Sequence record: SRR2962707_875
Length of the DNA stretch: 47,012 bases
Reading direction: 5' to 3' (one strand)
Shown one piece after another: positions 3,074-36,411 of the stretch. Below the pieces are notes generated by a model. The model worked only from the letters and a program-made list of their open reading frames with translations, had not been told where the DNA came from and did no database searches. Numbering within the stretch: the stretch's first letter is position 1; the number at the start of each line of letters is the position of its first letter. A program made the translations under genes and the position numbers.

Positions 3074-5379
<2,306 letters not shown>

Positions 5380-5494
5380 TTAAAAAGCGCGTCAGGACGA
5401 ATGGGGAGAGCCTCTCCGGTCGGCACGTAGGATACCCGTTGTGGCGGCCATCCCGCCAGCACCGGACGGATTGCTGCCCGACAGCCTTGGCGGG

Positions 5495-21889: not shown

Positions 21890-22108
21890 GACGACCATGA
21901 CGTATGAAACGCTTTCCTCGTGACGGCGCCCGGGCCCAAGGCCCCAGGCAATGGAAGTTGCACTGTAAGAAGAATCCCGCCCAATGAGAAGGGGCTGTTC
22001 CATAATACGAGAAAGCCGACCCGGACAATGTCGCAATTTGCGTATACCTGGTGATTCACGACAGCCCTTCGGGTACCTGGTGCCGCGCCTCAATTCGCGT
22101 GATGATAA

Positions 22109-22124
22109 TTGACAACGCCTTGAC
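22109..22124 (+). promoter_or_regulatory. Tandem direct repeat TTGAC-N6-TTGAC upstream of the response regulator
   Basis: TTGACAACGCCTTGAC; 11-bp periodicity typical of OmpR/PhoB-family sites. Confidence 0.5.
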
Positions 22125-22167
22125 GCGATCAGGTGGAAGATGCACGAAAGAAAACAGGAGTGACATC

Positions 22168-22866
22168 GTGAAGAATCTGTCTGTTCTGCTGGTGGAGGAC
22201 CATCGCCAACTGGCCCAAACCGTGGTCGAGTATCTGGAACAGGAGGGCGCGATAGTGGACTACGCCGGCGACACTGATCTGGCTCGCTCGCTGGTCAAGG
22301 AACACCACTACGATATTCTGATACTCGATGTGATGTTGCCCGGCGAGGACGGTTACAGCTTCTGCCAGTATCTGCGCCGTGATCTGGCTCTGGATACGCC
22401 GGTGATCTTCCTCACCGCACGGGACCACCTCGATGACAAGCTGGAAGGATTCGAGCGCGGTGGCGACGATTACATCGTCAAACCTTTCGCGCTCCCGGAA
22501 CTGGTGGCACGTGTTCGCGTTTTGGTGCGCCGGGAGCGCCGCGAGGTCACCCCCAACGTGATTACCATCGCTGATCTCCAACTGGATCCCGCTCGACAGG
22601 AAGTCCGCCGTGGAGGACAAATTCTGAAGCTCTCTCCCACCGCATTCCGAATCTTGCGCATTCTGATGCGCGAATCGCCCAAAGTGGTTAGCCGCGAACA
22701 ACTCGAACAGGAACTCTGGGGCGACCTGGTACCCGATTCCGACGCGTTACGCAGCCATCTGTATAATCTGCGCAAGGCGGTGGACAAGCCGTTTGATCAT
22801 AGCCTGATGGAGACTCTGCCCGGCGTCGGCTTCAGCATCCGGGCTCCGCGGAGCGAGAGTGCCTGA
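22168..22866 (+). CDS. OmpR-family response regulator (ColR-like)
   Basis: GTG start after AGGAG; LLVED, LDVMLPGEDG, FLTARD, GGDDYIVKPF, LRSHLYNLRKAVDKPF, TLPGVGF. Confidence 0.92.
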   Translation: MKNLSVLLVEDHRQLAQTVVEYLEQEGAIVDYAGDTDLARSLVKEHHYDILILDVMLPGEDGYSFCQYLRRDLALDTPVIFLTARDHLDDKLEGFERGGDDYIVKPFALPELVARVRVLVRRERREVTPNVITIADLQLDPARQEVRRGGQILKLSPTAFRILRILMRESPKVVSREQLEQELWGDLVPDSDALRSHLYNLRKAVDKPFDHSLMETLPGVGFSIRAPRSESA

Positions 22867-22876
22867 GCCCGGGGCC

Positions 22877-24139
22877 CTAACGAAACCTTACGCGAACGTC
22901 CGTGCCCTTTCCTGGCTGGCTGGCCACGTCCAAATGCCATTCAAATCGCTCACAGAGGCGCTGCACGATAGCCAGCCCCAATCCATAGCCACCCTCACTG
23001 CTGGAACCTCGCTCGAACGGCTTCAAAAGCCGAGCCAGTTCCTCGCGATCCATTCCGGTTCCGGTATCCACCACGTGCACCGCATCCGCGACCACGACCA
23101 GAGTGATACGGCCCGAACCGCTGTAATTGATGGCGTTACGAATCAGGTTGGTGAAGACGATGTTCAGTACCGTTTCCGACGCTTCCAGTGATAACAAGGC
23201 CTTCTGCTTCACCCGGAGATGAATCTGTTTACGCTCCGCCAACGGCTGCAGCCGTTCTATCAGATTCGCCACGACGTCGTTCACCACCAGCGACTCCGAT
23301 GCCGACGGTCGTTGCTCCGTGCGCGCCAGCAGCAATAACGTCTCCACCAGCGCTTCCATATCGTCGACGGTATCCGACATCCTGTCGATCAACGGACGAT
23401 CCCCGACTTGGCGCTCCAACAGTTCCAGATTGGCACGAAACACCGCCAGTGGCGTACGCAGTTCATGGCTGGCATCCCGAGTAAACTGCCGCTCCCGCTC
23501 AACAAAACGCAAAAGGCGGTCGGCATACGCATCCAGCGCGGCGATCAGTACCGATGCTTCACTGCCCGGCTCGGCCTCGACCTGAGTAAAATCCGGTCGT
23601 GCCTGCCGCGGATCAAGCACATTGGCATAGCGCAATGTTTCCGACAGCCGAACCAACGGCGACACCAGTTCCCGGGACTTTCTCCAACCAAGAAAGGAGG
23701 TCAGGTAAATCACCAGCAACACGCCGGTCAGAGGCAAAATACCGAACATGAATGCCAGAACGGATACTCTCTGCTCGTCGAAGATCAGATAAAGCCTGGC
23801 CTCGCCTTTATGTTCTATGTATACCAACGGCTGCTCGCCATCCAGCGTTACCCTCTGATAACCGTCGGGCAATGACAGCAGGATCTCGGGCACCGGATCC
23901 TGGGTTCTCCCATCCACCAGCAGTCCGAGCAAGTGGCGGGTGTTGGGGCGGGGAAAATCCGGGTCGCGCTGATAGAGTTGCCAGTAGTGCTCAGCCTCTT
24001 TCATCAAGGCTTCCTTAACCAGCACATTCTCAATGATTTTCGCCGTGGCCCAGACGCCAAGCACCGTCGCCAGGCTGATAAACAGAATCTGTATCAGAAA
24101 AACCCGGGTGAGCCGGTGCTGGACCCCTTTACGTGTCAT
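22877..24139 (-). CDS. Sensor histidine kinase (ColS-like)
   Basis: Two TM segments; H-box FTRDASHELRTPL, N-box NLIRNA, DTGTG, F-box PFERG, GYGLGLAIV. Start overlaps the upstream methyltransferase stop. Confidence 0.92.
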   Translation of the reverse strand: MTRKGVQHRLTRVFLIQILFISLATVLGVWATAKIIENVLVKEALMKEAEHYWQLYQRDPDFPRPNTRHLLGLLVDGRTQDPVPEILLSLPDGYQRVTLDGEQPLVYIEHKGEARLYLIFDEQRVSVLAFMFGILPLTGVLLVIYLTSFLGWRKSRELVSPLVRLSETLRYANVLDPRQARPDFTQVEAEPGSEASVLIAALDAYADRLLRFVERERQFTRDASHELRTPLAVFRANLELLERQVGDRPLIDRMSDTVDDMEALVETLLLLARTEQRPSASESLVVNDVVANLIERLQPLAERKQIHLRVKQKALLSLEASETVLNIVFTNLIRNAINYSGSGRITLVVVADAVHVVDTGTGMDREELARLLKPFERGSSSEGGYGLGLAIVQRLCERFEWHLDVASQPGKGTDVRVRFR

Positions 24140-25151
24140 CTTGATCCCGACTGAACAAATAATGGCCAACGAACCATTCCTTGCCTTCACCATAGTTGAA
24201 CAGTTCGGCGCAGGCCATGAAAAACATCCGCCAACGCTGTAGCCAGATCACCCCTTCATTGCCGCCGTATAATTCATCCAGTAGTGGAATCAACTCTTCC
24301 CGCTGGCGATCCGTTGCTTCCAACCAGGCCTCGAGGGTACGACCATAGTGGCGGCCATTTATGGCCCAGGACTGTTCCAGGTTGAGCCGATCGGCACAAC
24401 GGGGCAGCCAATCGAAGGACGGCATGACCCCGCCGGTAAAGAAGTAACGCCCCATCCAATTGGCATCACCTTCCGTTTCGAAAAGATATGTCAGCTGCCG
24501 ATGGCAGAATATGTGCACGAACAACTTGCCACCGGGCTTCAACCAATGGTGAATACGGCGGGTCAGCTCACGATGATTACGCATGTGTTCAAACATCTCC
24601 ACCGAGACCACACGATCAAAGTTCCGATCCGGTTGGAACACGGCCACATCAGCGGTGATGACACGAAGATTATCCAGTCCCCGCGCCTTGGCCCGGGCCA
24701 GAATCCATTGCCGTTGCGAGTTTGAATTGCTGACCGCGGTAATACGGCTGTGCGGGTAGCGGTCGGCCATCCACAGGGAAAGCGATCCCCAGCCGCAACC
24801 CAACTCAAGCACCTCCTGACCATCACTGAGATTCGCCCTTTCGCAGGAGAGTGACAGCATTGCTTCCTCCGCCGCGGTCAGATCGTCCACGCCATCCGGC
24901 CAGTATCCGCTGGAGTATTTAAGATGCCGTCCAAGAATCCGCGAATAGAAGCGAGCATCCACCTCGTAGTGCTGTTCATTGGCTTCTCCTTGTGCCACCG
25001 CCACCGGGCCGCCGGAGAGTGTGTCGAGCAGTTGACTCTGTTCGGATCGGCGGGGCTGTTCCCGCCGCAGACGTTTGCCAAGCAAGTAACGAATACCTTG
25101 GCGGACTAGCCTGTCGGGCAACAAGCCGGATTCAGCCAGACGAATCATCAT
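24129..25151 (-). CDS. Cfa-family SAM-dependent methyltransferase (coclaurine N-methyltransferase-like clade)
   Basis: ANEQHYEV, KYSSGYW, VLELGCGWGSL, FDRVVSVEMFEHMRN, FFTGGVMPS, RWRMFFMACAELF. Confidence 0.9.
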   Translation of the reverse strand: MMIRLAESGLLPDRLVRQGIRYLLGKRLRREQPRRSEQSQLLDTLSGGPVAVAQGEANEQHYEVDARFYSRILGRHLKYSSGYWPDGVDDLTAAEEAMLSLSCERANLSDGQEVLELGCGWGSLSLWMADRYPHSRITAVSNSNSQRQWILARAKARGLDNLRVITADVAVFQPDRNFDRVVSVEMFEHMRNHRELTRRIHHWLKPGGKLFVHIFCHRQLTYLFETEGDANWMGRYFFTGGVMPSFDWLPRCADRLNLEQSWAINGRHYGRTLEAWLEATDRQREELIPLLDELYGGNEGVIWLQRWRMFFMACAELFNYGEGKEWFVGHYLFSRDQDDT

Positions 25152-25924
25152 GAGGCGGGCCTCCAGGGGATAAACGGACTGGTAGTACGTTGGTAATCAC
25201 GATAATCCGCGCCACGGGATTTCAGCGCCTGCTTCTCGGTATAGGGAATGCCAGTGACGAACCAGAGAAACAGCAGCATCATTACCGGCAGGCCCCACAG
25301 CCAGACTCCACCTGTCGCACCAACGGCGATCAGTGGATAGCTGAACCAATGCAACCACTCAAAAAAATAGTTGGGGTGCCGTGAGTATCGCCACAGGCCG
25401 TCACGGCAGGTTCGCCCGTGACTGTCGTCTCGCGCCTTGAACCGTGCCAATTGATGATCCGCCAGGGCTTCTCCCCATATCGCCACCAAGCCGATGACGA
25501 CGCCCGCGGCCATCGCCCACGGGGAGAACCTCGGCTGGCCGGCGATGACGTGGAATGGCAGCGCGAAGAGCCAGGCCAGTCCCGCCTGTGCCCAGAACAC
25601 CAAGAGGAATGCAGGCTGCGCACCACGCCCCAGCCGTTCACGCATCGCCCGGTAGCGGCCATCTTCTTGTTCCTCGTTAACCACCCGTTTAAGAATGTGG
25701 CCACCAAGACGCATCGCCCAGACCAGCAACAAGACACCCGCCGCCAGTCTCGGCAGCAACTCACCTTCTCCAACAACAAGGTACGACAACCCGGTCACAC
25801 CGATACCCACACTCCAGGCCACATCCACATAACCCGCGTTCCCCGCCAGCCGCTGAATCCACCATGCCACGGTAAAAGCCAGCAGCAGCATAACCAGGCT
25901 GAATGTCAAAATACTGGAGATCAT
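25148..25924 (-). CDS. DUF1295 family membrane protein (steroid 5-alpha-reductase-like)
   Basis: VDVAWS, EDGRY, EALADHQL, GLWRYSRHPNYFFEW, YRDYQRTTSPFIPW; ATGA coupling at both ends. Confidence 0.88.
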   Translation of the reverse strand: MISSILTFSLVMLLLAFTVAWWIQRLAGNAGYVDVAWSVGIGVTGLSYLVVGEGELLPRLAAGVLLLVWAMRLGGHILKRVVNEEQEDGRYRAMRERLGRGAQPAFLLVFWAQAGLAWLFALPFHVIAGQPRFSPWAMAAGVVIGLVAIWGEALADHQLARFKARDDSHGRTCRDGLWRYSRHPNYFFEWLHWFSYPLIAVGATGGVWLWGLPVMMLLFLWFVTGIPYTEKQALKSRGADYRDYQRTTSPFIPWRPAS

Positions 25925-26463
25925 GGCGCTTTCTCCCATTCACGTCGCGACATGGCCGCCAACAACGGCACCACCGCCGCCCAGAGCAGCGCATAACATA
26001 ATGCCAACGGTAGCCAGCCCAGCGGCGCGCTCGCTGCCCCAAGCCGGATCCCCATGCTCACCGAGACCACACCTCCCACCGCCCCCAGCATGGCGGCCCA
26101 ACGCGGTCGTTGGTGCAACCAGGCCAGTGAATAGTTAAAGCTTACCGCGAAGCCCAGCCATAAACTCCATATCCATGACGGCGGCCACCACGCGCCACCG
26201 CCTGTCGCGTAGCGCAATAATCCGGTGAGCATCAACAGCGGCTCCACTAAAACGCAGCCCAGGGCACCGGCCAACAATAGTCTTGAATCCGACCGCCAAT
26301 TCCTCTCCAGCGCCCAGAGCAGCACCAGCATCACCATCACGACGCTCCAAGCCGGAACCGCCCATTGACGCACGGCCCCGATCACCGCCACCGGCCATAA
26401 CGCCTGCAACCCAATAAAGTTAACCGCTGTCGCGGCAAACGCGCGATTCATGTGTGGCAGCAT
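25921..26463 (-). CDS. DUF2878 family membrane protein
   Basis: NFIGLQALW, PPSWIWSLWLGFA..NYSLAWL, AAMLGAVGG..S...G.RLGA; the family is typical of cfa/photolyase clusters. Start uncertain (26466, 26463 or 26451). Confidence 0.75.
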   Translation of the reverse strand: MLPHMNRAFAATAVNFIGLQALWPVAVIGAVRQWAVPAWSVVMVMLVLLWALERNWRSDSRLLLAGALGCVLVEPLLMLTGLLRYATGGGAWWPPSWIWSLWLGFAVSFNYSLAWLHQRPRWAAMLGAVGGVVSVSMGIRLGAASAPLGWLPLALCYALLWAAVVPLLAAMSRREWEKAP

Positions 26464-26475
26464 CACCCACTCTTC

Positions 26476-26512
26476 GTCAACGGCTCGTGAACCGGCCTCA
26501 CAGCGGATTCAC
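26476..26512. promoter_or_regulatory. Two oppositely oriented YTSAC-N6-TTSAC boxes in a divergent spacer
   Basis: Minus strand 26476-26491 reads TTCAC-GAGCCG-TTGAC; plus strand 26497-26512 reads CTCAC-AGCGGA-TTCAC. Confidence 0.5.
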
Positions 26513-26555
26513 AACCACCATGAAAGAGTGGCGACCATGTACCGAGGAGATCCCC

Positions 26556-27116
26556 ATGACGCGCTTCCTGTGGCCCATCGCCGCTATAACGTTTCTGTCC
26601 GTCACCGGCTGTTTCCACACCCCCGAATCTCCGGGTTATTCTCATCTCTACGAGCAGGCTCTGGCGCAAAAGCGTGGTGTGGCGTCCCCGCCACCGGCGG
26701 CACTGGAGCGTTTTATAGCACTCTACTCCCCGATCAACGCCGACTATATCCGGGAACATCTGGATGAGGTCTATGCGGAGCAGATTTATTTCAACGATAC
26801 TCTCGCCACTTTCTATCGACGTGATGAACTCAAGAAACATATGCTGAAAACCGCCGGCCGGCTTGATGAGATGAAACTCCATGTTCGCAAGATCTGGCGG
26901 GATGAGGATGATGTTTTTCTGCAATGGATCATGGAAACCCATTTCAAGATTCTTGGTCGAAATCGCAGCTCACGTACTATTGGCATCTCTCAGCTTCGCT
27001 TCAATCGGCAGGGCCAGGTCATTTTCCATCAGGATTTTTGGGACAGCAGCCAGGGGCTCGACCAGCACCTACCGATTATTGGCACACTGACGCGGACATT
27101 ACGGGAGCACCCCTGA
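26556..27116 (+). CDS. NTF2/SnoaL-like protein, probable lipoprotein
   Basis: GAGGAG RBS; lipobox-like FLSVTGC; VYAEQIYFND, GISQLRF, VIFHQDFWD, HLPIIG. Confidence 0.75.
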   Translation: MTRFLWPIAAITFLSVTGCFHTPESPGYSHLYEQALAQKRGVASPPPAALERFIALYSPINADYIREHLDEVYAEQIYFNDTLATFYRRDELKKHMLKTAGRLDEMKLHVRKIWRDEDDVFLQWIMETHFKILGRNRSSRTIGISQLRFNRQGQVIFHQDFWDSSQGLDQHLPIIGTLTRTLREHP

Positions 27117-27649
27117 TGTGGCGACGCTTCCGGAAGTCCACTGTGATGTTCGCCGTGGTGCTCTGCCCAATCCTCAGCGCCACTGTTGGCGCGCGGCCAT
27201 TCGATACCATGCCAGTCTGCTCCCAAGCCGAGGTAAAGGCACTTCGATTCATTACCGTTGGCCGGGCTTCCCTGCATCGGCCCGATTGCAACACCACATC
27301 CCCGTTGTCAGCGCCACTTCGCCTTGACTTCACGTATTACCGGGAAATCCCCGGTGATGCCTTCGCCAAAGCAGCTCGCAAGATCATCAAACGCAACCTT
27401 CCCGCTGTCGCCTTTAAGCGTCTGGCGTCACGCATAGACGCTTTCAATGCTGCCTATCAAACGATTCAGGAAGGCGACCGTTATAGCCTTGATTACCATG
27501 CCGATGGCACCCTCGTTCTTCTCCTTAACGGCGAAGCCGTGGCGAGGGAAAAGGGCGACGACTTCGCTAGCGCCTATCTTTCCATCTGGTTTGGTGAACG
27601 TCCTTACTCCGATGCACTTAAAGCCGCGCTTATGGATGTCGGCTCCTGA
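27116..27649 (+). CDS. Chalcone-isomerase-like (Chalcone_3) exported protein
   Basis: TGATG coupling to the upstream gene; signal peptide; GDRYSL, DFASAYLSIWFGERP..LKAALM. Confidence 0.75.
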   Translation: MWRRFRKSTVMFAVVLCPILSATVGARPFDTMPVCSQAEVKALRFITVGRASLHRPDCNTTSPLSAPLRLDFTYYREIPGDAFAKAARKIIKRNLPAVAFKRLASRIDAFNAAYQTIQEGDRYSLDYHADGTLVLLLNGEAVAREKGDDFASAYLSIWFGERPYSDALKAALMDVGS

Positions 27650-28886
27650 GGGGATTCACCTCATCCCGATATTGCTCCCCGATAGCTACCAGATGCACGG
27701 TGCTGATGGCTCTCTCCAAAAAGGCGCCCTGACAGTAACAAAGATAGTAGTTCCACATTCGACAGAAGCGCTCATCGAACCCCATCTCACTGATCTTCGG
27801 CAAGGCGGACACAAAGCGCTCCCGCCAATGTCCCAGGGTGCGGGCGTAGTCCAGGCCAATATCGTGCAATGCCACCGGGACCAGGCGAGTATGGCGGCGC
27901 AAAGCGTCACACATCACCGTGACCGACGGTAGAAAGCCGCCGGGGAAAATGTACCGCTTTATGAAATCCACATTATCCCGCGCGTACTCATAGCGTTGCT
28001 CGGGCACCGTGATCGCCTGTAGGAGCAGCATTCCGTCCGGCTTGAGGAGGTGATCCAGGATTCTGAAGTATCCGCTCAGGTATTGATGCCCCACCGCCTC
28101 GACCATCTCCACGGAGACCACGCGATCATAAGTGCCGGTCAGTTCCCGATAATCGCGCTCCAGCACTTCAATGCGGTTTTCCAGGCCGGCCTTTTTTATT
28201 TCCTCACGAGCGTAATACGCCTGTTCCCGGGACAGTGTCGTGGTCGTTACCCGGACGCCATAATGACGAGCGGCATATATCGCCAATCCGCCCCAGCCGG
28301 TACCGATCTCCAGCAAGTGCATGCCTTCGCGCAGACGCAGGCGGCGGCAGATCAGATCCAGTTTATGCAATGCGGCGGTTTCCAGGTCCGCCTCCGGGTC
28401 GGGGTAGATAGCGCTGGAGTACATCATGCGTGCATCCAGAAACAGAGAAAAAAACGCATTGCCCAGATCGTAATGGGCGGCGATGTTACGGCGCGATCCG
28501 TTCACGGAATTACGATTGGCGAAGTGCAGGGCCTTCAACAGCGGCTTGGCCAGTAGTGCCGTCCCGCTTTCCAGTGACCGGATGACGTTCACGTTGGCCG
28601 CGAAATAGCGCATCACCGCCACCAGATCGGGGCTATCCCAACCACCATCCATATACGCTTCCGCTGCCCCCAGCGCACCGCCGGTCATCATCCGGCGATA
28701 GCAGTCCCAGTCGGAAATATGCAGGCAAGCATCGCCGTTGCCGAAGCGCACCAGAGCACCATCCGGCTCATAAAGAGAAAGACCACCGGCAGGCAGAGCC
28801 GCCAGCCGCCTGTGCACCAGCTTGCGCGCCACTCTCTGCAGCCAGGTCGGATGTCGCATCGTCAATGCCTTATCCGCGTCCATCAT
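27630..28886 (-). CDS. Cfa-family fatty acyl methyltransferase (UfaM/CfaS-like)
   Basis: GAAEAYMDGGW, SRRNIAAHYDLGN, MMYSSA, LEIGTGWGG, VSVEMVEAVG, YIFPGGFLPS, YYLCYC. Confidence 0.92.
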   Translation of the reverse strand: MMDADKALTMRHPTWLQRVARKLVHRRLAALPAGGLSLYEPDGALVRFGNGDACLHISDWDCYRRMMTGGALGAAEAYMDGGWDSPDLVAVMRYFAANVNVIRSLESGTALLAKPLLKALHFANRNSVNGSRRNIAAHYDLGNAFFSLFLDARMMYSSAIYPDPEADLETAALHKLDLICRRLRLREGMHLLEIGTGWGGLAIYAARHYGVRVTTTTLSREQAYYAREEIKKAGLENRIEVLERDYRELTGTYDRVVSVEMVEAVGHQYLSGYFRILDHLLKPDGMLLLQAITVPEQRYEYARDNVDFIKRYIFPGGFLPSVTVMCDALRRHTRLVPVALHDIGLDYARTLGHWRERFVSALPKISEMGFDERFCRMWNYYLCYCQGAFLERAISTVHLVAIGEQYRDEVNPLRSRHP

Positions 28887-29655
28887 GGCTGTTTTCCTCT
28901 TCTCTCAACTCACTTCGCCCGGGATGGGCGTGAAACGGCACCCCTTTTCGCCATAACTTCCAGGCCTGCCAGTAGATGCCCGCCATGGTCCTCAGACTCT
29001 GCGCGCCAAAGCGGTAAATGATCCTCGCCATGGCACCGGCATCGGCGTCGAGCATGCGCATGTTCAAGCCAGCGGCAAACACGACCCGATCATCATCACG
29101 GTCTTCCAACGTTAAGCGCAGATCGGGAAACAACGCGTGAAGACACCAGTGATAACGCAGTGCCATGGGCAAGAATGGAGAAACATGGAAGGTCTTGTCG
29201 TGACAGGCGGTCTGGCCTTGCACGGCGGAGATCAACGGCAGCGGGTAAAAATACCGTTCATGCCAGGGCGTATTCCTCACCTCCGCCAGCATCGCCGCGG
29301 GGCGATCAGCGCCAGGAGGAAAGTGCATATACAGCACCAGTGGATTGAACACAGCGCCGAAAGTGCGCCATTGCCCCAGCATGAAGACCCGGCCCGACGA
29401 CCAATCGAGCCCATGTATCAGAGCCTGTTCACGTACTTTTTCTCCCAGCGGCCGGTCCCGGCCATCGACAAAGTCCCGGTCCCGGAATGTCACCGGGCGC
29501 CAGCGCCGCCCCCACAACTTCTGCCGCCGCAACAGCCGATCCGGTTCGTCCACATTGCACCACACCAGCCATAGCGGATACTGGAAGGCATGCGCCACCG
29601 GCTCCGGGCGACGGTGCCAGACGTGGCCGCGAGCCAGCGCGAAATCCGGAATCAC
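28870..29655 (-). CDS. DUF1365 family protein (UfaO-like)
   Basis: GHVWHRR..PVAHAFQY, FNPLVLY, AEVRNTPWHER, KTFHVSPF, IYWQAWKLWRKG.PF..HP; GTGA coupling. Confidence 0.88.
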   Translation of the reverse strand: MIPDFALARGHVWHRRPEPVAHAFQYPLWLVWCNVDEPDRLLRRQKLWGRRWRPVTFRDRDFVDGRDRPLGEKVREQALIHGLDWSSGRVFMLGQWRTFGAVFNPLVLYMHFPPGADRPAAMLAEVRNTPWHERYFYPLPLISAVQGQTACHDKTFHVSPFLPMALRYHWCLHALFPDLRLTLEDRDDDRVVFAAGLNMRMLDADAGAMARIIYRFGAQSLRTMAGIYWQAWKLWRKGVPFHAHPGRSELREEENSHDGRG

Positions 29656-30917
29656 GGATTCCCCCCGCAGCGGTCAAGCCCCTCAACCACGTCCAGAGCC
29701 GATACCACCCCGTCCTCGTGGAAGCCATTACGGCACCAGGCGCCGCAAAACCAGGTTCGCCGCTTGCCGTTGCGCTGCAAAAGACGCTGGCGTGCGACGA
29801 GCCCTTCCGGGGTGAACACTGGATGGCGAAATACCTGGCGGTGCAACACCGCTTCCTCGCGAATCCGGTCGCCCGCGTTCAGTGTCACACAGAATGTTTC
29901 CGGCGAAGTCAGCCCTTGCAGCAGGTTCATGTTGTAGGTCACTTGCACCGGTTCGGTATCACCCGCTTTCCCCAACAATGCGTTCCAACTGGACCAGGCC
30001 CGCCGCCGGCGGGGCAACAAGCGGATATCGGTATGCAGCACCACATCATTGGCCTGATAGCGCAACGCATCCAGGCATGTCTTCTCCAGCGGGTCCGCAT
30101 CCTCCAGTATTCTCGACACCTGGTCGCTGTGACACGCAAGAATTACCTGATCGAAGCGGCGACATCTCTCTTCCCCCGCCAGCTTCAGGTCCACCCCTGT
30201 GGCATCGCGGCGTACCGATACCACCGGGCGCCCGGTAACCCATTGCGCCGGACATGTTGAACACAACGCTCGCACGTAGCTGCGGGAGCCGCCTGGGATA
30301 ACGTACCATTGCGGCCGACCGCGCAATGACAGTAAGCCGTGATGCTCAAAGAAACGCACGAAAAAGCGGACCGGGAAAGCCTCCATTTGCGCCAGCGAGC
30401 AAGACCAGATGGCACCGCCCATGGGTAGAATGTAGTGCCGCCGGAAAGCATCGCTGTAACCGCGTTCCCGCAAGAACGCCCCCAGTGGTTGTTCGCCTCC
30501 CGGCTCGGCCAGCAACGCCGGAGCCTCCCGATTGAAGCGCAGGATGTCACGCAACAGGTTCCAGTGCCGGGGGCGAACCAGGTTGGCGCGCTGTGCAAAG
30601 AACCCTCCCAGGCCATCACCGCAATATTCCAGCCCGGTGTGCGAATCGGACACCGCGAACCCCATGCGGGTCGGTTGGCGCCCTATTCCCAGCAAGGTCA
30701 GCAAGGCTTCAAAATTCGGGTAAGTACGGTCATTGAATACGATAAAACCCATGTCCACGGCGTAATCACCGTGGTCACGGCGCACGTCCACGGTATAAGT
30801 GTGTCCGCCCAATTGCACTTCCGCTTCGAAAACCGTGACCTGATGACGGGCACCGAGGTACCAGGCCGCGGTCAATCCGGCAATGCCGCCGCCGACAATG
30901 GCAATACTCTGACTCAT
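29652..30917 (-). CDS. FAD-dependent oxidoreductase/desaturase (UfaD-like)
   Basis: IVGGGIAGL, LGGHT, VDMGFIVFNDRTYPNF, LACHSDQ, AWSSWN, TYNMNLLQ, WFCGAW..NGFHEDG. Confidence 0.9.
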   Translation of the reverse strand: MSQSIAIVGGGIAGLTAAWYLGARHQVTVFEAEVQLGGHTYTVDVRRDHGDYAVDMGFIVFNDRTYPNFEALLTLLGIGRQPTRMGFAVSDSHTGLEYCGDGLGGFFAQRANLVRPRHWNLLRDILRFNREAPALLAEPGGEQPLGAFLRERGYSDAFRRHYILPMGGAIWSCSLAQMEAFPVRFFVRFFEHHGLLSLRGRPQWYVIPGGSRSYVRALCSTCPAQWVTGRPVVSVRRDATGVDLKLAGEERCRRFDQVILACHSDQVSRILEDADPLEKTCLDALRYQANDVVLHTDIRLLPRRRRAWSSWNALLGKAGDTEPVQVTYNMNLLQGLTSPETFCVTLNAGDRIREEAVLHRQVFRHPVFTPEGLVARQRLLQRNGKRRTWFCGAWCRNGFHEDGVVSALDVVEGLDRCGGNP

Positions 30918-32359
30918 GCCTTACGCTCCCCGGCCTGCTGGCTCCAAGCGTCACGCGCGGCACGAAACGCCGCTTCCACACGTTGCTTGACCCCCTCATG
31001 TGGCACCAACGGAGGCGGATAGTCCCCGGTCAGTAATGGCTGCTTCCAGGGTTCATGGATAGCGTTGTTATCAAGCTCCGCCAGCTCGGTGACATAGCGG
31101 GCGATAAAACGCCCTTCCGGATCGAACCGCCGGCTCTGCCGCACCGGGCTGAAGACCCGGAAATAAGGCGCCGCGTCGGTGCCGGTGGACGCGCTCCATT
31201 GCCAGCCGCCGTTGTTGGCGGCGAAGTCTCCATCAATCAGATGTTGCATGAAAAACCGCTCCCCCCTTCGCCAGTCAATAAACAGATGCTTGGTCAGAAA
31301 CATGGCGGTCAGCATGCGCAGGCGATTATGCATCCACCCGGTGCTCACCAGTTGCCGCATCGCCGCGTCGACCAGCGGATAGCCGGTACGCCCATTACAC
31401 CAGGCTGCAAAATGCGCTTCATTGTCATTCCAACGCAGCAGCCGCGTTTCCGGACGGAATGGCGCCCCCTTCGCCAATGCTGGGAACCGGTGCAGAATTT
31501 GCCGGTAAAAATCCCGCCACGCCAGCTCGCCGATCCAGGTCACCGCGCCTTCCCTGGCCGCCGGATCCCGCATCGCCATTCGCGCCGCCCGCCACGCCTC
31601 CGCCGGTGCCAGGGTGCCGGCGGACAACGCCACCGACAGTTCACTGGTGGCCGTCTCCGCGGGCACATCACGCAACCTCTTGTAATCGCCGATATGCTCC
31701 TCAACGAACACCTTCAACCGCCGCACGGCGGCGTCTTCTCCTGGCAGCCAGAGTGCTCTCGGCGCCTGCCCGAGCGACAGCGCCGATAGCGCCCCGTCCA
31801 CCGTGTCATGCCCGACAAAGCGGCCCCGCCGTCTCGGCCAGCGCGGCGCCTCCGGCACTTGTGGACCGTATTCTTCCATCCACTGATCCCAGCGTCGCTT
31901 GTACGCCGTGAAGACCGTGTAAGGGGTACCTTTGCCCGTGTTCAAGGATCTTGGCGGCACCAGAACGCCATCGTCGAAGCCATGGATACGGACCCCTTCC
32001 GCCTCCAGTTCGCGCGCGACGGCCCGATCCCGGTTCAGTTCATTCAGCGGGTACTCGCGGTTGCAAAACACATCGGTAATGTTGTGTTGGCGAACAAAGT
32101 CCGTCACCACCCCCACCGTGCCCTCAAAGTCACCGCCGTCGATCACATGCAGATCAACGCCGCGCGAGGCCAGCGTATGTCCCAGCTCCAGCAGACTCTC
32201 CAATACGTACCAGCGGCGCAGCGGCGCAACCCCGTGCCGGTCCCATTGGCCCGGACACAATACATACAAGGCGATCACCGGCTCACCAGCCGCCAATGCC
32301 CGCTGCAGGGGGGTGTGACTGTGACATCGCAGATCGTTACGGAACCAGATCAGACGCAT
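30914..32359 (-). CDS. phrB: Deoxyribodipyrimidine photolyase (class I CPD)
   Basis: WFRNDLR, ELAWRDFY, GRTGYPLVDAAMRQL..TGWMHNRLRM, DGDFAANNGGWQW, YFRVFSP. Confidence 0.95.
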   Translation of the reverse strand: MRLIWFRNDLRCHSHTPLQRALAAGEPVIALYVLCPGQWDRHGVAPLRRWYVLESLLELGHTLASRGVDLHVIDGGDFEGTVGVVTDFVRQHNITDVFCNREYPLNELNRDRAVARELEAEGVRIHGFDDGVLVPPRSLNTGKGTPYTVFTAYKRRWDQWMEEYGPQVPEAPRWPRRRGRFVGHDTVDGALSALSLGQAPRALWLPGEDAAVRRLKVFVEEHIGDYKRLRDVPAETATSELSVALSAGTLAPAEAWRAARMAMRDPAAREGAVTWIGELAWRDFYRQILHRFPALAKGAPFRPETRLLRWNDNEAHFAAWCNGRTGYPLVDAAMRQLVSTGWMHNRLRMLTAMFLTKHLFIDWRRGERFFMQHLIDGDFAANNGGWQWSASTGTDAAPYFRVFSPVRQSRRFDPEGRFIARYVTELAELDNNAIHEPWKQPLLTGDYPPPLVPHEGVKQRVEAAFRAARDAWSQQAGERKA

Positions 32360-33221
32360 GGTCCGCCCTCCCCGCCGCCATGGTCGCCGACCAATCGCTC
32401 ATCGCCCCGGCCACTTCGGCGAAACCGCCCGGGCAGCGCGTCAGCCACTCCGGTGTGCGTAACTCCCCGGTCAGAGCCGGCCCGCAGCACCATAGCGCGA
32501 GCCCGGAATCCGGCATGCGCTCGGGCCACAACCGGTTACTCTGTCGTCTCCCGGGGTGCTCCCCGAGCACCCAGAGCAAGCCGTCCAAATGGGAATGGCT
32601 CAACCAGGCCCCGAGCTCCGCGCCCGCCACCGGCAGCACCAAAGTCCATACCGGCACTTCTGACAAAGCGGCCTGAAACATCGCCGGCAGGGGATCCCCC
32701 ACCGCCATCACCAGCCAGCCGTGTTGACGGCGACTGGGAGCGGCCGCCAACAGTGGGCCGGACAATTTCTGCCGCAAAAAGCTGTCAAACAGGGCACGGG
32801 CGGCAATACGTCCCGGCATTTGCAGATGCGACCGCAACGGCTCACACCAGCCGTTCACTACCTGCTCCAGCGGGTAGTCACCGGTCAGCCGGCGGAACAA
32901 CTGTTCCAGTCGGCGGACGTTGAGGTCATCCAGAGCCACCCGGGCCTCTTCCATGGCCTGGTGCCAAGGCCCCGTCACCGCCCCGGGGGCCTCTCCCCGC
33001 TCCAGCACAGCACGTACCTGACTGATCGGCAGCCCCCGGTCGAGCCAGGCGAGAATAGAGCGGATGCGGGCCACGTCCGCTTCGTTGTATCGGCGATGTC
33101 CCCGCTCTGTCCGGGCCGGACGGATCAATCCGTAGCGCCGCTCCCAGGCCCTCAACGTCACCGGGTTCACACCGCAACGCCGGCTCACCGCCTGGATCGT
33201 CAGCCTCTCTTTCGTGTTCAT
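32337..33221 (-). CDS. MerR-family regulator, LitR/CarH-like
   Basis: N-terminal IQAVSRRCGVNPVTLRAWERRYGLIRPARTERGHRRY; located between the DUF523-DUF1722 gene and phrB. Confidence 0.88.
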   Translation of the reverse strand: MNTKERLTIQAVSRRCGVNPVTLRAWERRYGLIRPARTERGHRRYNEADVARIRSILAWLDRGLPISQVRAVLERGEAPGAVTGPWHQAMEEARVALDDLNVRRLEQLFRRLTGDYPLEQVVNGWCEPLRSHLQMPGRIAARALFDSFLRQKLSGPLLAAAPSRRQHGWLVMAVGDPLPAMFQAALSEVPVWTLVLPVAGAELGAWLSHSHLDGLLWVLGEHPGRRQSNRLWPERMPDSGLALWCCGPALTGELRTPEWLTRCPGGFAEVAGAMSDWSATMAAGRADHASDLVP

Positions 33222-34189
33222 AACCGGTTCCTCAAACCCAGGGCATCCGGATACGGGCGCAGATACTCCTGGGTCGCCAGATAAGGTTGCTCCACTTTGC
33301 TCTGAGCGCCCCTCAGCATCGTCATCGGCACAACCAGAGGAACTTCACCGCGCTGATAGGCCTCGATCTGCTGATGAATCAAGCGGCGATCCTCGGCGCT
33401 CAGCGCCTCGCGCAGAAAGCCGGTCAGGTGCAGCATGGTATTGACGTGGCTGCCACGTGACACTCGCCGCGCCAGCGCCGGCATCACCTGGGTGATGTAT
33501 TCCTCCGCGATCACCGGCAGAGGCTGACGCTTGAGATCGGACAATAGCGGGCCCACCCGCCGGTAGGTGGACTGACAGTGCGCCAGCAATTGAAACTTGT
33601 GACGACGATGGAAGGCCAGCAACCCTTCCGCGGTGAGCCCACCCTCCTGCAAGCGGCACCAGTCGTCATAAACGAACACCCTCTCAACGAAGTTTTCACG
33701 CAGACCGTCGTCATTCAGCCGCCCTTCCTCCTCCAGCGGCATCAGCGGAAACCGCCCCGCCAGCGCCGCCGCGAACAGCCCGCTGGCATCCCGCCTCGCC
33801 ACCTCACCATCGGCGCGATAGACCCTTATTCGCTCCATGCCGCAACTGGGTGACTTGGCCATCAATACAAACCCTCTGAGGTGCGCGAGGTGTTCCAGCT
33901 CCTGGTCAATAAAGCCGTGCATCAGCGCGGTGAAATCCTTTTCCCCGCGCGTGGCGCGCAGCCGGATCTGACCATCGATCTCCACCAACCGCATGGCCTG
34001 ACGAGGCGCGCTCATGCCAGCGCCCATCTCCGGACACAAGGAATGAAACTGGAAGTAGCGGCCCAGCACCTCCGTGCAGTAACGGGAGTGCTTATGCCCA
34101 CCGTCGTGGCGTACCGGGCTGCCCAGCAGGCAGGCACTGATCCCCACGGGGATGCGTCGATCCTTGGTGTCTCCCGGATGCGCGCTCAT
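33218..34189 (-). CDS. DUF523-DUF1722 fusion (YbgA family; RudS-like 4-thiouridine desulfidase)
   Basis: Three Fe-S Cys motifs GISACLLG, CPE, KSPSCG; then EEEGRLND..LRENF, FH...K..LLAH, N.MLH..GF, QEYL.PYP. Confidence 0.88.
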   Translation of the reverse strand: MSAHPGDTKDRRIPVGISACLLGSPVRHDGGHKHSRYCTEVLGRYFQFHSLCPEMGAGMSAPRQAMRLVEIDGQIRLRATRGEKDFTALMHGFIDQELEHLAHLRGFVLMAKSPSCGMERIRVYRADGEVARRDASGLFAAALAGRFPLMPLEEEGRLNDDGLRENFVERVFVYDDWCRLQEGGLTAEGLLAFHRRHKFQLLAHCQSTYRRVGPLLSDLKRQPLPVIAEEYITQVMPALARRVSRGSHVNTMLHLTGFLREALSAEDRRLIHQQIEAYQRGEVPLVVPMTMLRGAQSKVEQPYLATQEYLRPYPDALGLRNRL

Positions 34190-34217
34190 GGTTAGGCTCC
34201 GTTCGCTTTCTTTGACC

Positions 34218-34241
34218 TGTACAAGAATGCCGCTCTGTACA
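34218..34241. promoter_or_regulatory. LitR/PplR-type operator TGTACA-N12-TGTACA
   Basis: TGTACA-AGAATGCCGCTC-TGTACA, 28 bp upstream of the first gene of the light-response operon. Matches the T(G/A)TACA-N12-TGTA(C/T)A consensus recalled for Pseudomonas putida class II LitR (PplR). Confidence 0.8.
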
Positions 34242-34369
34242 AGTTTCAACGAGCCGTGATGAAGGCACCGTGAAGATCCGTGAACGCCACCGGTCAGGCT
34301 GACGTCGGGAGTCATTCTCGGGGTTGCGTCAGTGGCAACCCGAAGAGTGGTTACCATGGGCGTCGAACC

Positions 34370-34408
34370 AAAAAAACCCCGGGTACCGCAGTCGATACGG
34401 CCCGGGGT
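34370..34408 (-). terminator. Probable intrinsic terminator downstream of alkB
   Basis: ACCCCGGG...CCCGGGGT stem adjacent to an A7 run (U-tract on the minus strand). A second perfect hairpin GAGCCCGGC-AAG-GCCGGGCTC lies at 34429-34449. Confidence 0.6.
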
Positions 34409-34467
34409 CCTGAAGGAAGCCAGGAAATGAGCCCGGCAAGGCCGGGCTCCGTGTCATCAGCAGGTAT

Positions 34468-35616
34468 TCATGCGATGTTGTTCACGCGGCGCGCATTGCG
34501 GAACAATTGATCCATCTCCCCTTCGTAGTAAGCCTCGACGCGGGGATTCATGACCTTTTTCCACAGCGGCGGGAACAGCGCCAGCACGTACATGGCGGCG
34601 TAACCACCTGGCAATTGCGGGCTTTCCTCATAGTGGCGCAGGACCTGATAGCGCCGCTTGGCGTAGGCATGGTGGTCACTGTGGCGCTGCAGTTGGAACA
34701 GGGCCAGATTGGTGAGGAGGTAATTGGAGTTCCAGCTATGCGCCGGGGTTACCCGCTCATAGCGGCCATTCTCCTGAACCCGACGATGCAGGCCATAGTG
34801 CTCGATGTAGTTGATGACCTCCAGCGTCAAGGCGGCAACGAAGCTTTGTGCCAGGAAGAACAGCACACCCTGCCAGCCGAAAGCAATTCCGAAAGCCACC
34901 GCGAACAGAGCGGAAATGCTGTACCACCAGATCAGCTCATTATGGATGCTGACGTTCTTTTTGCCCTTACGCTCCAGATACTGCTTTTCCAGCTTCCAGG
35001 CATTGAGGAAGTTGTGCTTGATGGCGCGCGGCAGAAAACTGTACAGCCCCTGGTTGTACTGGGATGAGGAGGCATCCTGCGGGGTGGAAACATGGACATG
35101 ATGGCCGCGCACGTGCTCCACCTTGAAGCCGGCATAGGTCACCGAGGACAGTAGCAACCCGCCCATCCAGTTCTCCAGTTTGGGATCCTTGTGGACGAAT
35201 TCGTGGCCCAGATTAATGGCGATGATGCCACCCACGGTGCCAATGGACACAATCCAGCCCAGTTTGCCGAACCAGCTGTAGTCATTGCTGATGAACACAT
35301 GACCGGCATAGAACAACACGCCCAGCCAGATAAAGCCCATCAGAAACAGAAAGAACGTGTAGATGCGCTCCTCGCTCAGGGAGGGCACCTGAACCTTCTC
35401 ATCCGGGTTGGAGGGATCCTTGCCGATTAAGTAGTCGAGCAACGGCACGATGCCGAACACGACGAAATAGATGAACCAGGCCCAGTAGTCCTGGGTGCCG
35501 GCCTCACGTCCCACATGGACGCTGAACGGCAACAGCGGCAGTACCGCGGCCCAGAACAGGAGATAGCCCCACTTTTTTATTTTCAACATGGTGTCGGACG
35601 ACATTTTGGCGAACAT
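34468..35616 (-). CDS. alkB: Alkane 1-monooxygenase (AlkB2-type)
   Basis: All four His boxes present: HEFVHK, EHVRGHH, NYIEHYG, LQRHSDHHA; N-terminal TM helices. Confidence 0.97.
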   Translation of the reverse strand: MFAKMSSDTMLKIKKWGYLLFWAAVLPLLPFSVHVGREAGTQDYWAWFIYFVVFGIVPLLDYLIGKDPSNPDEKVQVPSLSEERIYTFFLFLMGFIWLGVLFYAGHVFISNDYSWFGKLGWIVSIGTVGGIIAINLGHEFVHKDPKLENWMGGLLLSSVTYAGFKVEHVRGHHVHVSTPQDASSSQYNQGLYSFLPRAIKHNFLNAWKLEKQYLERKGKKNVSIHNELIWWYSISALFAVAFGIAFGWQGVLFFLAQSFVAALTLEVINYIEHYGLHRRVQENGRYERVTPAHSWNSNYLLTNLALFQLQRHSDHHAYAKRRYQVLRHYEESPQLPGGYAAMYVLALFPPLWKKVMNPRVEAYYEGEMDQLFRNARRVNNIA

Positions 35617-35674
35617 GATCGGCCTCGCTAGTGACAGTAACAGTCTTCGATGGCAACGTTAGCACGATTAACTC

Positions 35675-35689
35675 AATTGTCAAACAATT
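35675..35689. promoter_or_regulatory. Putative GntR/FadR-type operator
   Basis: Palindrome AATTGT-CAA-ACAATT in the AT-rich alkB/gntR divergent spacer. Confidence 0.6.
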
Positions 35690-35748
35690 CAATTCGTGAC
35701 ACATCCACCCATAATGGCGATAATCGCTGCCATCAAAAGGAGCCCTTT

Positions 35749-36411
35749 ATGACCTTGAGAGCCGTGAGCCTCAGCGAGCAGATCGCCGATCATCTGGCCG
35801 AGCAGATTGTCCGCGGCGAGCGAAAACCGGGGGAGAAGCTGCCGGAGGCGGAGCTGGCAAAACAGCTTGAAGTGAGTACCAACTCACTCCGAGAGGCCTT
35901 CAGACTCTTGGAGAAGCAACATTTGATCGAACTCCAGCCGCGCCGCGGCGCGCGGGTTTGCGAGGTCAGCGAAAGCGAGGTCCGCGATCTCTACGACTTC
36001 CTGTTTCTGCTGCTCTCCCGTCTGGCGGCCCAGGCGGCCAGCAATTGGCAACCGGGTCAGATCGAGGATCTCGCCGCCATGCTGCCGGACTTCCAGCGCT
36101 GCTACGATCAAGGCGACGTCCAGGGCGGCCATCAGCTGGCCTTCCGTTTCGTCGAGATCGCCACCGACCGTTTCGCCAACAACCGCTACCTGGCGGCCGA
36201 CATCACCGACCTGATGCCCTTGTTGAAGCGGTTCTCCTTCATCGCCCTGCAAGAAGAAACCACCGAATTCGATGTGTCCTTGCGAATCTTCCAGCGGCTG
36301 CTGGAAAACGTACTGGCGCGGGATCCCGAGAAGGCCGCGGCGGACATTCGTGAGTATGGCGAGAATCAGTGCCGTATCGTGCTGAGGGCGGTGGCCAAGC
36401 GGGAACTTTGA
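35749..36411 (+). CDS. GntR family transcriptional regulator (FCD domain)
   Basis: AAGGAG RBS; SLSEQIADHL..QIVRGE..PGEKL.EAELAKQLEVS...LREA...L.......P RRGARV; divergent from alkB. Confidence 0.92.
   Translation: MTLRAVSLSEQIADHLAEQIVRGERKPGEKLPEAELAKQLEVSTNSLREAFRLLEKQHLIELQPRRGARVCEVSESEVRDLYDFLFLLLSRLAAQAASNWQPGQIEDLAAMLPDFQRCYDQGDVQGGHQLAFRFVEIATDRFANNRYLAADITDLMPLLKRFSFIALQEETTEFDVSLRIFQRLLENVLARDPEKAAADIREYGENQCRIVLRAVAKREL

Follow-up and report, generated by a model that had tools for sequence, protein, structure and literature searches.

Furan fatty acids are made in bacteria on phospholipid acyl chains by UfaM, an S-adenosylmethionine (SAM) methylase of the cyclopropane-fatty-acid (CFA) synthase family, UfaD, a flavin adenine dinucleotide (FAD) desaturase, and UfaO, a DUF1365 oxygenase (PMC7380195). 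In Rhodobacter sphaeroides, such genes (RSP1087-1091 and ufaM) belong to the singlet-oxygen regulon of sigma-E and ChrR, an extracytoplasmic function (ECF) sigma/anti-sigma pair (PMC7380195). In Pseudomonas, furan-fatty-acid-type genes are among the light-induced genes of class II LitR proteins such as PplR1 of P. putida and PmlR2 of P. mendocina, dark repressors that bind the operator T(G/A)TACA-N12-TGTA(C/T)A and occur with rudS-litR-phr operons (PMC9758184, PMC11417400); RudS is a tRNA 4-thiouridine (s4U) desulfidase in which a TudS desulfidase domain is fused to DUF1722 (PMC11417400). Here we analyse an island of these gene types in a stretch of 47,012 nucleotides (nt) of DNA from sequence record SRR2962707_875 (the whole stretch is called the window below), whose host is an oil-degrading marine bacterium. 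The island combines a furan-fatty-acid-type operon, a photolyase gene and a LitR-like gene with a sensor histidine kinase and an OmpR/PhoB-family response regulator. On comparative grounds, we conclude that the resident regulator probably activates the lipid operons and its own gene through direct repeats of the form TTSAC-N6-TTSAC, and that it would control the photolyase operon jointly with a LitR repressor.

With the sigma-E/ChrR regulon of R. sphaeroides the island shares UfaD-, UfaO- and UfaM-like proteins and further CFA-synthase-like and membrane genes. It differs in that a kinase/regulator pair is found here and an ECF sigma/anti-sigma pair there; the island itself has no genes for such a sigma/anti-sigma pair. 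The first-pass annotation of the window, which was made from its letters alone, had held that such clusters are controlled by RpoE-ChrR or LitR and not by a resident pair. We found no contrary report in open-access papers and bioRxiv, and no kinase/regulator pair described there as controlling a photolyase/furan-fatty-acid cluster; the claim, and with it the novelty, is provisional. The accessible parts of the LitR, RudS and furan-fatty-acid papers (PMC9758184, PMC11417400, PMC7380195) mention no such pair.

Four 16-mers in the island carry the repeat, each with two pentamers at an 11-base-pair (bp) period (Table 1). Reading of the window letters places them exactly where, and on the strands on which, the first-pass annotation had put them, and on the gene map every box points towards the gene that it precedes. 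The further TTCAC reported above the box before rudS is also present, as is the LitR operator just below that box. The relaxed pattern YTSAC-N6-TTSAY has five matches in the window against 1.09 +/- 1.12 in shuffled sequence, and none of 100 shuffles reaches five, a comparison that overstates the case because the pattern had been fitted to these very sites. The fifth match is at 10416-10431, within an rsmB-like open reading frame (ORF).

Conservation was analysed first within the family Alcanivoracaceae; genus counts given below refer to Alcanivorax/Alloalcanivorax. In the nearest comparison genome, G001, the proteins of the region are 99-100% identical to those of the window. Orthologues of the regulator (73-100% identity) occur in 21 of 25 family genomes, and 20 loci were compared. 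The order regulator, then kinase-methyltransferase-DUF1295-DUF2878, then SnoaL is kept in all 20, with the chalcone-isomerase-like (CHI-like) gene next in 18. The photolyase operon adjoins the pair in only two of them (G001 and G009). Since it lies apart in the other 18, the island is best described as two modules, the regulator/kinase/lipid module and the photolyase operon, that abut in this lineage.

After pooling with public Alcanivoracaceae loci and removal of duplicates there were 38 loci, with 29 unique regulator-upstream sequences and 30 unique divergent spacers. The regulator-upstream box is a perfect TTSAY-N6-TTSAY in 27 of the 29 and agrees at 9 of 10 positions in the other two, and all 30 spacers have back-to-back boxes, each with at least 9 of 10 positions; the sites were chosen as the best scorers, which inflates the apparent perfection of both sets. 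Back-to-back boxes are 21 nt apart (start-to-start) in 19 spacers, 22-25 nt in six and 31-70 nt in five. The pentamers hold about 2 bits per position, and the N6 and flanks mostly 0 to 1 bit. The boxes are therefore conserved in orthologous promoters while the sequence within and around them drifts, as would be expected if the original proposal were correct.

The arrangement is not confined to this family. A scan with the kinase alignment, using one genome per species, gave 595 relatives, and the best 80 loci were analysed, 63 of them from outside the Alcanivoracaceae. All 17 Alcanivoracaceae loci among these best 80 have the kinase gene downstream of a lipid-cluster gene, at a distance of at most 400 nt. 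Lipid-cluster genes are found beside the kinase in 39 of the 63 others (a photolyase gene in 12), and 27 of these 39 have a lipid gene in the same orientation no more than 400 nt upstream of the kinase gene. The typical operon runs desaturase, ufaD-like, DUF1365, CFA synthase, DUF2878, DUF1295, methyltransferase, kinase. Of the lipid-linked loci in which a regulator gene of at least 45% identity was found, 49 of 50 have it convergent to the kinase gene, while unlinked loci, mostly from Lysobacterales, have the order regulator-then-kinase in 20 of 21.

The strict pattern, as defined on the window, was then applied to 27 distant loci with a SnoaL match. It has 39 perfect matches in 407,197 nt, of which 32 fall within 250 nt upstream of SnoaL, a region that makes up 1.66% of the sequence (binomial P 1e-50, overstated by relatedness). 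The reversed control has six matches, one of them inside these upstream regions. In 12 of the 27 loci there is one box per strand, usually 32-34 nt start-to-start. The boxes recur at the same divergent promoter in other orders, in agreement with the initial claim.

An even sample of 400 Gammaproteobacteria was searched with a SnoaL alignment; 28 matched, and the 27 besides G001 were analysed. Counted by locus, 9 of 9 loci with an adjacent pair have a perfect box no more than 330 nt from the SnoaL start, against 1 of 18 loci without an adjacent pair (Fisher 2.1e-6; related genomes are not independent, so that this P value, like the previous one, is too favourable). The lone exception, G120, has a full-length kinase orthologue on another contig. 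Counted by genome, the box is present in 10 of 10 genomes with the kinase (E up to 1e-100) and in none of 16 without it (E up to 1e-70). The 16 kinase-less SnoaL loci hold the same enzyme genes, several of them with MerR genes, and the box therefore goes with the kinase and not with the enzymes. The SnoaL-like gene adjoins the boxes in all kinase-positive loci. Overall, the kinase is found in 24 of the 400 genomes (E up to 1e-70), and the many taxa that have the pair as a constant component of the cluster include Alcanivorax, Methylophaga, methanotrophs, Hahella and the marine K189A clade. The same wiring very probably recurs in many other marine and soil Gammaproteobacteria, and the interpretation of the pair as a widespread system is supported at the level of comparative genomics.

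In one genome of the even sample, G052, the kinase is divergent (2e-79) and its gene stands in a row with those of the regulator and photolyase (regulator, kinase, photolyase); SnoaL has no perfect box there. Its pair (L175, G052:C3, 10612-13945; regulator 43% and kinase 33% identical) adjoins ufaD/ufaO/ufaM-like genes, and the locus has a TTGAC-N6-TTCAC at 9026 on the minus strand. This pair may represent a sister family with the same job.

The rudS promoter combines a box with a LitR operator. The operon behind it resembles the rudS-litR-phr operons of Pseudomonas, and its LitR-like protein is presumably also a dark repressor. It has the N-terminal MerR helix-turn-helix of class II, with no complete B12-binding module. 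No B12-binding domain was detected (MerR_1 and MerR only; Pfam, E up to 0.001), the NCBIfam match to CarH reaches 53.8 bits against a cut-off of 400 bits, and the match to MlrA is also weak and below its cut-off. RudS orthologues are present in 15 of the 16 genus genomes searched, and in 14 of these an operator of the class II consensus, as in the window, precedes the start codon by 9-28 nt. Of these 14 genomes, 13 also have TTCAC-N6-TTCAT, separated from the operator by exactly 17 nt on its upstream side. This sets the island apart from the Pseudomonas systems, for which no second regulator is described in the accessible parts of PMC9758184 and PMC11417400. The N6, the sequence of the 17-nt gap and the N12 of the operator differ between clades, whereas the pentamers and the gap length are invariant. 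In most genus genomes the rudS operon is on a different contig from the kinase/regulator pair. The extra TTCAC half-site is kept in G009, and another clade has TTGAG at 11 nt instead.

The only genome lacking the box is G007 (99% complete). Its best kinase match has 32% identity and is a paralogue also found in G001, and DUF1295 has no match in this genome. The locus reads GntR-AlkB-rudS-litR-phr-GNAT-MFS, which is the order of the window without the block that begins with the regulator gene and ends with the ufaD-like gene (about 22100-30917), and rudS-litR-phr are 93-97% identical. The genome without the pair and the lipid genes is thus also without the box before rudS, although this is a single natural deletion. 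Three further arrangements bear on the same question. G013 has a different operon without LitR, and a perfect back-to-back pair between SnoaL-CHI-rudS-phr and a long lipid operon ending in the kinase gene; G338, from another family, has back-to-back boxes between rudS and the regulator gene; and in K189A-type loci the two genes of the pair flank the photolyase gene.

These observations make it possible to weigh a simpler account, in which only the regulator's own promoter and the divergent spacer are targets, and the rudS box is a sigma-70 -35 element with a fortuitous half-site, LitR alone controlling the photolyase operon. The sequence TTCAT(C), an 18-nt spacer and TACAnn can indeed be read as a plain, if weak, -35/-10 pair; the distance from the box to the putative -10 is about 18 nt here and about 13 nt at the other three promoters; and in the published Pseudomonas work a class II LitR alone suffices for light control. 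A fortuitous half-site would however not be expected to leave both pentamers and the gap length of 17 nt unchanged in 13 of 14 genomes in which N6 and flanks are free to vary, nor to be missing in just the one genome that has no pair. In addition, rudS and phr stand directly behind box pairs in G013 and G338 with no LitR operator there, and the K189A-type loci set the photolyase gene inside the pair itself. Control by LitR alone is therefore unlikely, and we prefer joint control of this promoter by LitR and the resident regulator.

The block absent from G007 (L151, G007:C56) is about 8.8 kb long, and its flanks (GNAT/MFS and phr/litR/rudS/alkB/gntR) are 93-100% identical; by this comparison it behaves as a presence/absence island. 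The region upstream of rudS in G007 is different, and about 0.8 kb longer.

The first-pass annotation had called the pair ColRS-like. ColRS of Pseudomonas also consists of an OmpR-family regulator and an EnvZ-type kinase, and has membrane/lipid targets. The footprinted ColR sites follow the consensus (T/C)(T/C)NA(C/G)NN(T/C)TTTTT(C/G)AC, in which a T-rich spacer separates two TTSAC-like pentamers of 11-bp period, and PP0903, downstream of colRS, is regulated by ColR (PMC2689224). The ending of the ColR site given in the first-pass annotation, TT(C/G)AC, agrees with this consensus, and the half-site and 11-bp period are indeed common to both systems. The four window boxes fit both pentamers of the T-rich-spacer consensus (YYNASNNYTTTTTSAC) but fail at the TTT run, their spacers being G+C-rich. 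The ExxE metal-binding motif just before the second membrane helix, by which ColS/RaxH sensors are recognised (PMC8306577), is absent from the periplasmic stretch of the window kinase (about residues 37-124, read from the translation). The gene order also differs, since the window pair is convergent and embedded among CFA-synthase/DUF1295/DUF2878 genes, with the kinase as the last gene of a target operon.

All three of the missing features (ExxE, a T-rich spacer, and a downstream methyltransferase with a Kdo/WaaP kinase) are found in a second pair, on contig C6 of G001. This operon (L153, G001:C6:107000-116000, about 3336-6183, minus strand) runs regulator, kinase, methyltransferase, Kdo/WaaP-family kinase. 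Its sensor kinase (P0084) has EQQE and EARE directly before the second membrane helix, and the TTGAC-N6-TTGAC site before its methyltransferase gene (L153 4123-4138; TTGACATCTCTTTGAC) agrees by eye with the ColR consensus at 15 of 16 positions. PP0903 we likewise take to be a methyltransferase gene, followed by a lipopolysaccharide (LPS) kinase gene. By these features the C6 pair is the true ColRS-like operon of G001, and the window pair, by the same features, belongs to a widespread unnamed paralogue family of ColRS and is not its orthologue. The window pair does have the domains of an OmpR/PhoB two-component system, namely a receiver and winged-helix Trans_reg_C in the regulator and HisKA and HATPase_c in the kinase (Pfam). 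The best relatives in the PDB are DrrD, PhoP, BasR/PmrA and MtrA, and neither protein reaches an equivalog cut-off in an NCBIfam search. Two public Alcanivorax records label the kinase 'ColS'; the other named relatives among the best 120 have generic names, and no name of a named Xanthomonas system occurs among these 120.

It could still be that the boxes are bound by the ColR orthologue of contig C6, alone or together with the resident regulator, which would make the island part of a metal/envelope ColRS regulon. The half-site and period are those of the ColR consensus, the paralogue has its own TTGAC-N6-TTGAC site, and the two regulators are 46% identical with similar DNA-binding (recognition-helix) regions, so that cross-binding between them in the same genome may be possible. 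The box nevertheless tracks the resident kinase family in the 10 positive and 16 negative genomes of the even sample, G007 keeps a ColR-like paralogue and yet has no box before rudS, and the G+C-rich spacers of the island are not those of a ColR site. We consider it quite improbable that ColR is the cognate protein, and take the resident regulator to be so.

Turning to the promoters themselves, a consensus scan of 21900-34500 found no canonical sigma-70 promoter, where 4.3 were expected. At the regulator and SnoaL promoters, in many orthologues, a -10-like hexamer (TATACT, TAATAA, GATACT, CATTGC, CAGTAG) lies 12-13 nt after the second pentamer. These two observations fit activator-dependent promoters. 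The pho box is the classical example of such a promoter: a PhoB dimer acts by class II activation from tandem 11-bp repeats that take the place of the -35. By analogy, the island promoters would be of the same type, having repeats of 11-bp period in place of the -35 at a short fixed distance from a -10-like hexamer, and no canonical sigma-70 promoter. They differ from the pho box in the half-site, in having no link to phosphate, and in that back-to-back pairs here serve divergent operons.

On the basis of the observed anatomy, its conservation and the co-occurrence of box and kinase, we infer a mechanism of binding, activation and gating as follows. The phosphorylated regulator would bind TTSAC-N6-TTSAC as a head-to-tail dimer that overlaps or replaces the -35 region. 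It would activate its own promoter; the DUF2878-DUF1295-methyltransferase-kinase operon, with positive feedback on the kinase; the divergent genes for the SnoaL-like lipoprotein and the CHI-like protein; and the rudS-litR-phr-ufaD-ufaO-ufaM-like operon. With the kinase inside a target operon and, in this family, a box before the regulator gene, the circuit would be self-amplifying. At the rudS promoter the LitR operator would overlap the -10 and the start site, and the promoter could act as an AND gate, at which the kinase signal must activate and light must lift repression by LitR. Activation of the lipid operons and of the regulator's own gene, with control of the photolyase operon shared with LitR, is the reading that we consider probable. 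The original proposal, of a pair wired to the island through TTSAC repeats beside LitR, is thus supported by the conservation, the other orders, the 10/10 and 0/16 counts and the loss in G007, with three corrections: the pair is a paralogue of ColRS and not ColRS itself, the island is two modules, and the envelope signal is conjectural and the genome-wide number of boxes not above background (see below).

The sign of regulation could also be the opposite. The regulator may bind the boxes as a repressor: they take up most of the 89-bp divergent spacer and are near the start codons, the minus-strand box ending 24 nt before the DUF2878 ATG, and about 37 of the 89 nt would be covered by two dimers. 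Some OmpR-family regulators do repress, as VgrR does at tdvA (PMC5231390). The boxes are however oriented towards the genes, with the -10-like hexamer 12-13 nt downstream where it is visible, which would be the geometry of pho-box-type activation, and there is no canonical -35/-10 pair for a repressor to occlude. Repression is thus fairly unlikely, and activation is retained in what follows.

Several further observations, together with the spacing at rudS and the similar ColR-like paralogue already described, weigh against a dedicated activator. The TTGAC(A/G) sequence is also the sigma-70 -35 consensus. At SnoaL, the best that 7 of the 27 distant loci offer is a match at 9 of 10 positions. 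The regulator-upstream box, conserved as claimed in the Alcanivoracaceae, is not general: a site (at least 9 of 10, within 200 nt) is found in 3 of 32 lipid-linked loci outside the family, against 18 of 21 unlinked loci. The boxes had also been expected to be more frequent than background in the whole genome, and this is not clearly so; the contrary outcome, named in the first-pass annotation as one that would refute the proposal, comes close to holding. In G001 the strict TTSAC-N6-TTSAC has 12 matches against 9 for the reversed control, and the relaxed pattern 62 against 44, which is not clear enrichment; with counts so near the control, the number of matches alone is no evidence. It might be argued from these counts, and from a pattern fitted after the fact, that no protein is dedicated to binding the boxes, which would be chance or generic promoter-like sequence. 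Such an origin would not account for the conservation of only the pentamers, at the same promoters across families and orders, or for the absence of boxes wherever the kinase is absent, and we give it almost no credence. What exceeds chance is the placement and conservation of the boxes and not their number.

Some minor sites were also noted. The 16-mer TTCAC(A/C/G)CTATTTTCAT occurs at seven places on five G001 contigs (C28, C31, C37, C39 and C40), several of them near contig ends. It is probably a repeated element or an rRNA/tRNA-linked sequence, and its copies inflate the relaxed-pattern total. A near-identical 16-mer on contig C30 sits inside an ORF and is read as chance. In Lysobacterales-type loci (L124-L149), TTCAC-N6-(A/T/G)TCAC precedes the regulator gene, in the 200 nt upstream of it, where the pair is unlinked to lipid genes, and a palindrome-like CTTCAC-N4-GTGAAG lies about 40 nt downstream of this repeat.

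The signal was approached through the sensor domain of the kinase. Two membrane helices flank a periplasmic domain of about 88 amino acids (aa), and no Pfam family matches the first 215 residues. Relatives from all groups can be aligned over the periplasmic domain, with common motifs and invariant residues. A model of residues 1-215 (30-row alignment; mean predicted local distance difference test (pLDDT) 78) has two long helices with a small four-stranded sheet between them. In a Foldseek search of the PDB, an integrative WalK model was the single match below E 0.001, and the others were weak matches to Cache/PDC-type ligand-binding domains at E 0.08 and above. The likeness to extracellular WalK and Cache/PDC sensor domains is thus weak; a small PDC-like domain is suggested as a lead only. 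In a protein atlas, residues 1-165 gave only unnamed clusters and leads to generic two-component N-terminal or PhoQ-sensor domains. A complex prediction of the periplasmic domain with the SnoaL-like lipoprotein scored 0.00, below the mark, and carries no weight either way.

The content of the regulon (photolyase, tRNA s4U desulfidase, furan-fatty-acid-type enzymes and exported proteins of lipid-binding fold) suggests a near-ultraviolet (near-UV) or photo-oxidative cue, and our guess is that the signal is a periplasmic or membrane cue of photo-oxidative envelope damage. A stronger version can be formulated, in which the kinase family is dedicated to sensing photo-oxidative envelope damage, or else a periplasmic or lipid cue that derives from light, the pair constitutes a third paradigm of control beside sigma-E/ChrR and LitR, AND-gated with LitR in Alcanivorax at a fixed 17-nt register, and the exported SnoaL-like and CHI-like proteins that always flank the boxes serve in generating or presenting the signal. 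This remains speculative and is, on balance, doubtful.

The photolyase/furan-fatty-acid/CFA-synthase cluster is a core bacterial answer to light and singlet oxygen. Its control is attributed, in the accessible literature, to sigma-E/ChrR or to LitR-type repressors, to which a kinase/regulator pair would be an addition. The analysis provides a predicted binding site, a compact regulon and a kinase sensor domain without an assigned ligand, and it corrects the 'ColS' labels in public annotation. It brings two questions within reach of direct tests: what non-phototrophs sense when light damages their envelope, and how a single promoter integrates that signal with a repressor under photoreceptor control. 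Two paralogous regulators with a common half-site in one genome also present a clean case for studying how cross-talk is avoided.

The features of the island are collected in Table 1. The kinase gene is convergent to the regulator gene, their stop codons being 10 nt apart, and is the last gene of a minus-strand operon that begins with DUF2878, DUF1295 and the methyltransferase; its start overlaps the methyltransferase stop by 11 nt. The DUF2878 ORF is open to 26466, and the ATG at 26451 is the likely start, by alignment with orthologues beginning MN(K/R)(S/A)F. The SnoaL-like and CHI-like genes are divergent from this operon, across a spacer of 89-104 nt. The six genes rudS, litR-like, photolyase, FAD amine-oxidase-type, DUF1365 and CFA-synthase-type methylase form a second minus-strand operon with overlapping stops and starts. 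The first of these has 2-thiour_desulf at residues 15-155 and DUF1722 at residues 198-314 (Pfam), which is the fusion that defines RudS. The UfaM, UfaD and UfaO domain families are all present and adjacent (Pfam), and by domain family the genes at 27630-30917 are of the furan-fatty-acid type.

Table 1 Boxes, operator and genes of the island (positions in the window)
Feature	Position	Strand	Remarks
Direct-repeat box TTGAC-AACGCC-TTGAC	22109-22124	+	43 nt upstream of the regulator's GTG start; predicted autoregulatory site
OmpR/PhoB-family response regulator, 232 aa	22168..22866	+	Pfam Response_reg + Trans_reg_C
Sensor histidine kinase, 420 aa	22877..24139	-	Pfam HisKA + HATPase_c; no sensor-domain family
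Short CFA-synthase-like SAM methyltransferase (CMAS family), 340 aa	24129..25151	-	Pfam CMAS 1.7e-39
DUF1295 membrane protein (steroid-reductase / ICMT-like)	25148..25939	-	Pfam DUF1295 2e-63
DUF2878 membrane protein, first gene of the kinase operon	25921..26451	-	Pfam DUF2878
Box TTCAC-GAGCCG-TTGAC	26476-26491	-	Faces the DUF2878 operon; ends 24 nt before the ATG at 26451
Box CTCAC-AGCGGA-TTCAC	26497-26512	+	Faces the SnoaL-like / CHI-like genes
SnoaL/DUF2358-like protein, lipoprotein signal (cysteine after hydrophobic leader)	26556..27116	+	Pfam DUF2358 + SnoaL_2
Chalcone-isomerase-like (Chalcone_3) protein, signal-peptide-like N-terminus	27116..27649	+	Pfam Chalcone_3 7.9e-19
CFA-synthase-like methylase (UfaM domain family)	27630-28886	-	Pfam
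DUF1365 protein (UfaO domain family)	28870-29655	-	Pfam
FAD amine-oxidase-type oxidoreductase (UfaD domain family)	29652-30917	-	Pfam
DNA photolyase	30914..32359	-	Pfam DNA_photolyase + FAD_binding_7
MerR-family LitR-like regulator	32337..33221	-	Pfam MerR_1 + MerR only
RudS-type protein (TudS desulfidase fused to DUF1722)	33218..34189	-	Pfam 2-thiour_desulf + DUF1722
LitR operator TGTACA-N12-TGTACA	34218-34241	-	Sequence match to the class II LitR consensus
Box TTCAC-GGTGCC-TTCAT	34259-34274	-	Exactly 17 nt upstream of the LitR operator
Extra TTCAC half-site	34280-34284	-	10-nt period, not 11; weak

The whole region is present in four RNA-seq runs of one study, solely as long assembled contigs that span the stretch and show no transcript ends, strands or levels. 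Directly upstream of the rudS promoter, at 34468-36411, are an alkB-type alkane hydroxylase gene and a divergent gene for a GntR/FCD regulator; the gap between alkB and rudS is 278 nt, and contains the box and the LitR operator.

Some smaller features accompany the regulator and the DUF2878 promoter. An inverted partial half-site, GTGA(T/G/A), precedes the regulator box, 8 nt ahead of its first pentamer (window 22097-22101; ...cGTGAtgatgaTTGAC...) and is conserved within the genus only. In the spacer (window 26451-26491, and L033-type spacers) the minus-strand box ends 23-24 nt before the conserved DUF2878 ATG, with a -10-like hexamer about 7 nt before the ATG, and the leader of the DUF2878 mRNA may be very short or missing altogether. 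Finally, in most genus loci a gene for a 314-aa protein with GAF and partial GGDEF domains lies directly downstream of the regulator on the same strand (L033:2270-3214, plus strand). It fills the gap of about 1 kb between the regulator and kinase genes, and is absent from the window, G001 and G009. This protein may be a cyclic di-GMP-type output of the same circuit.

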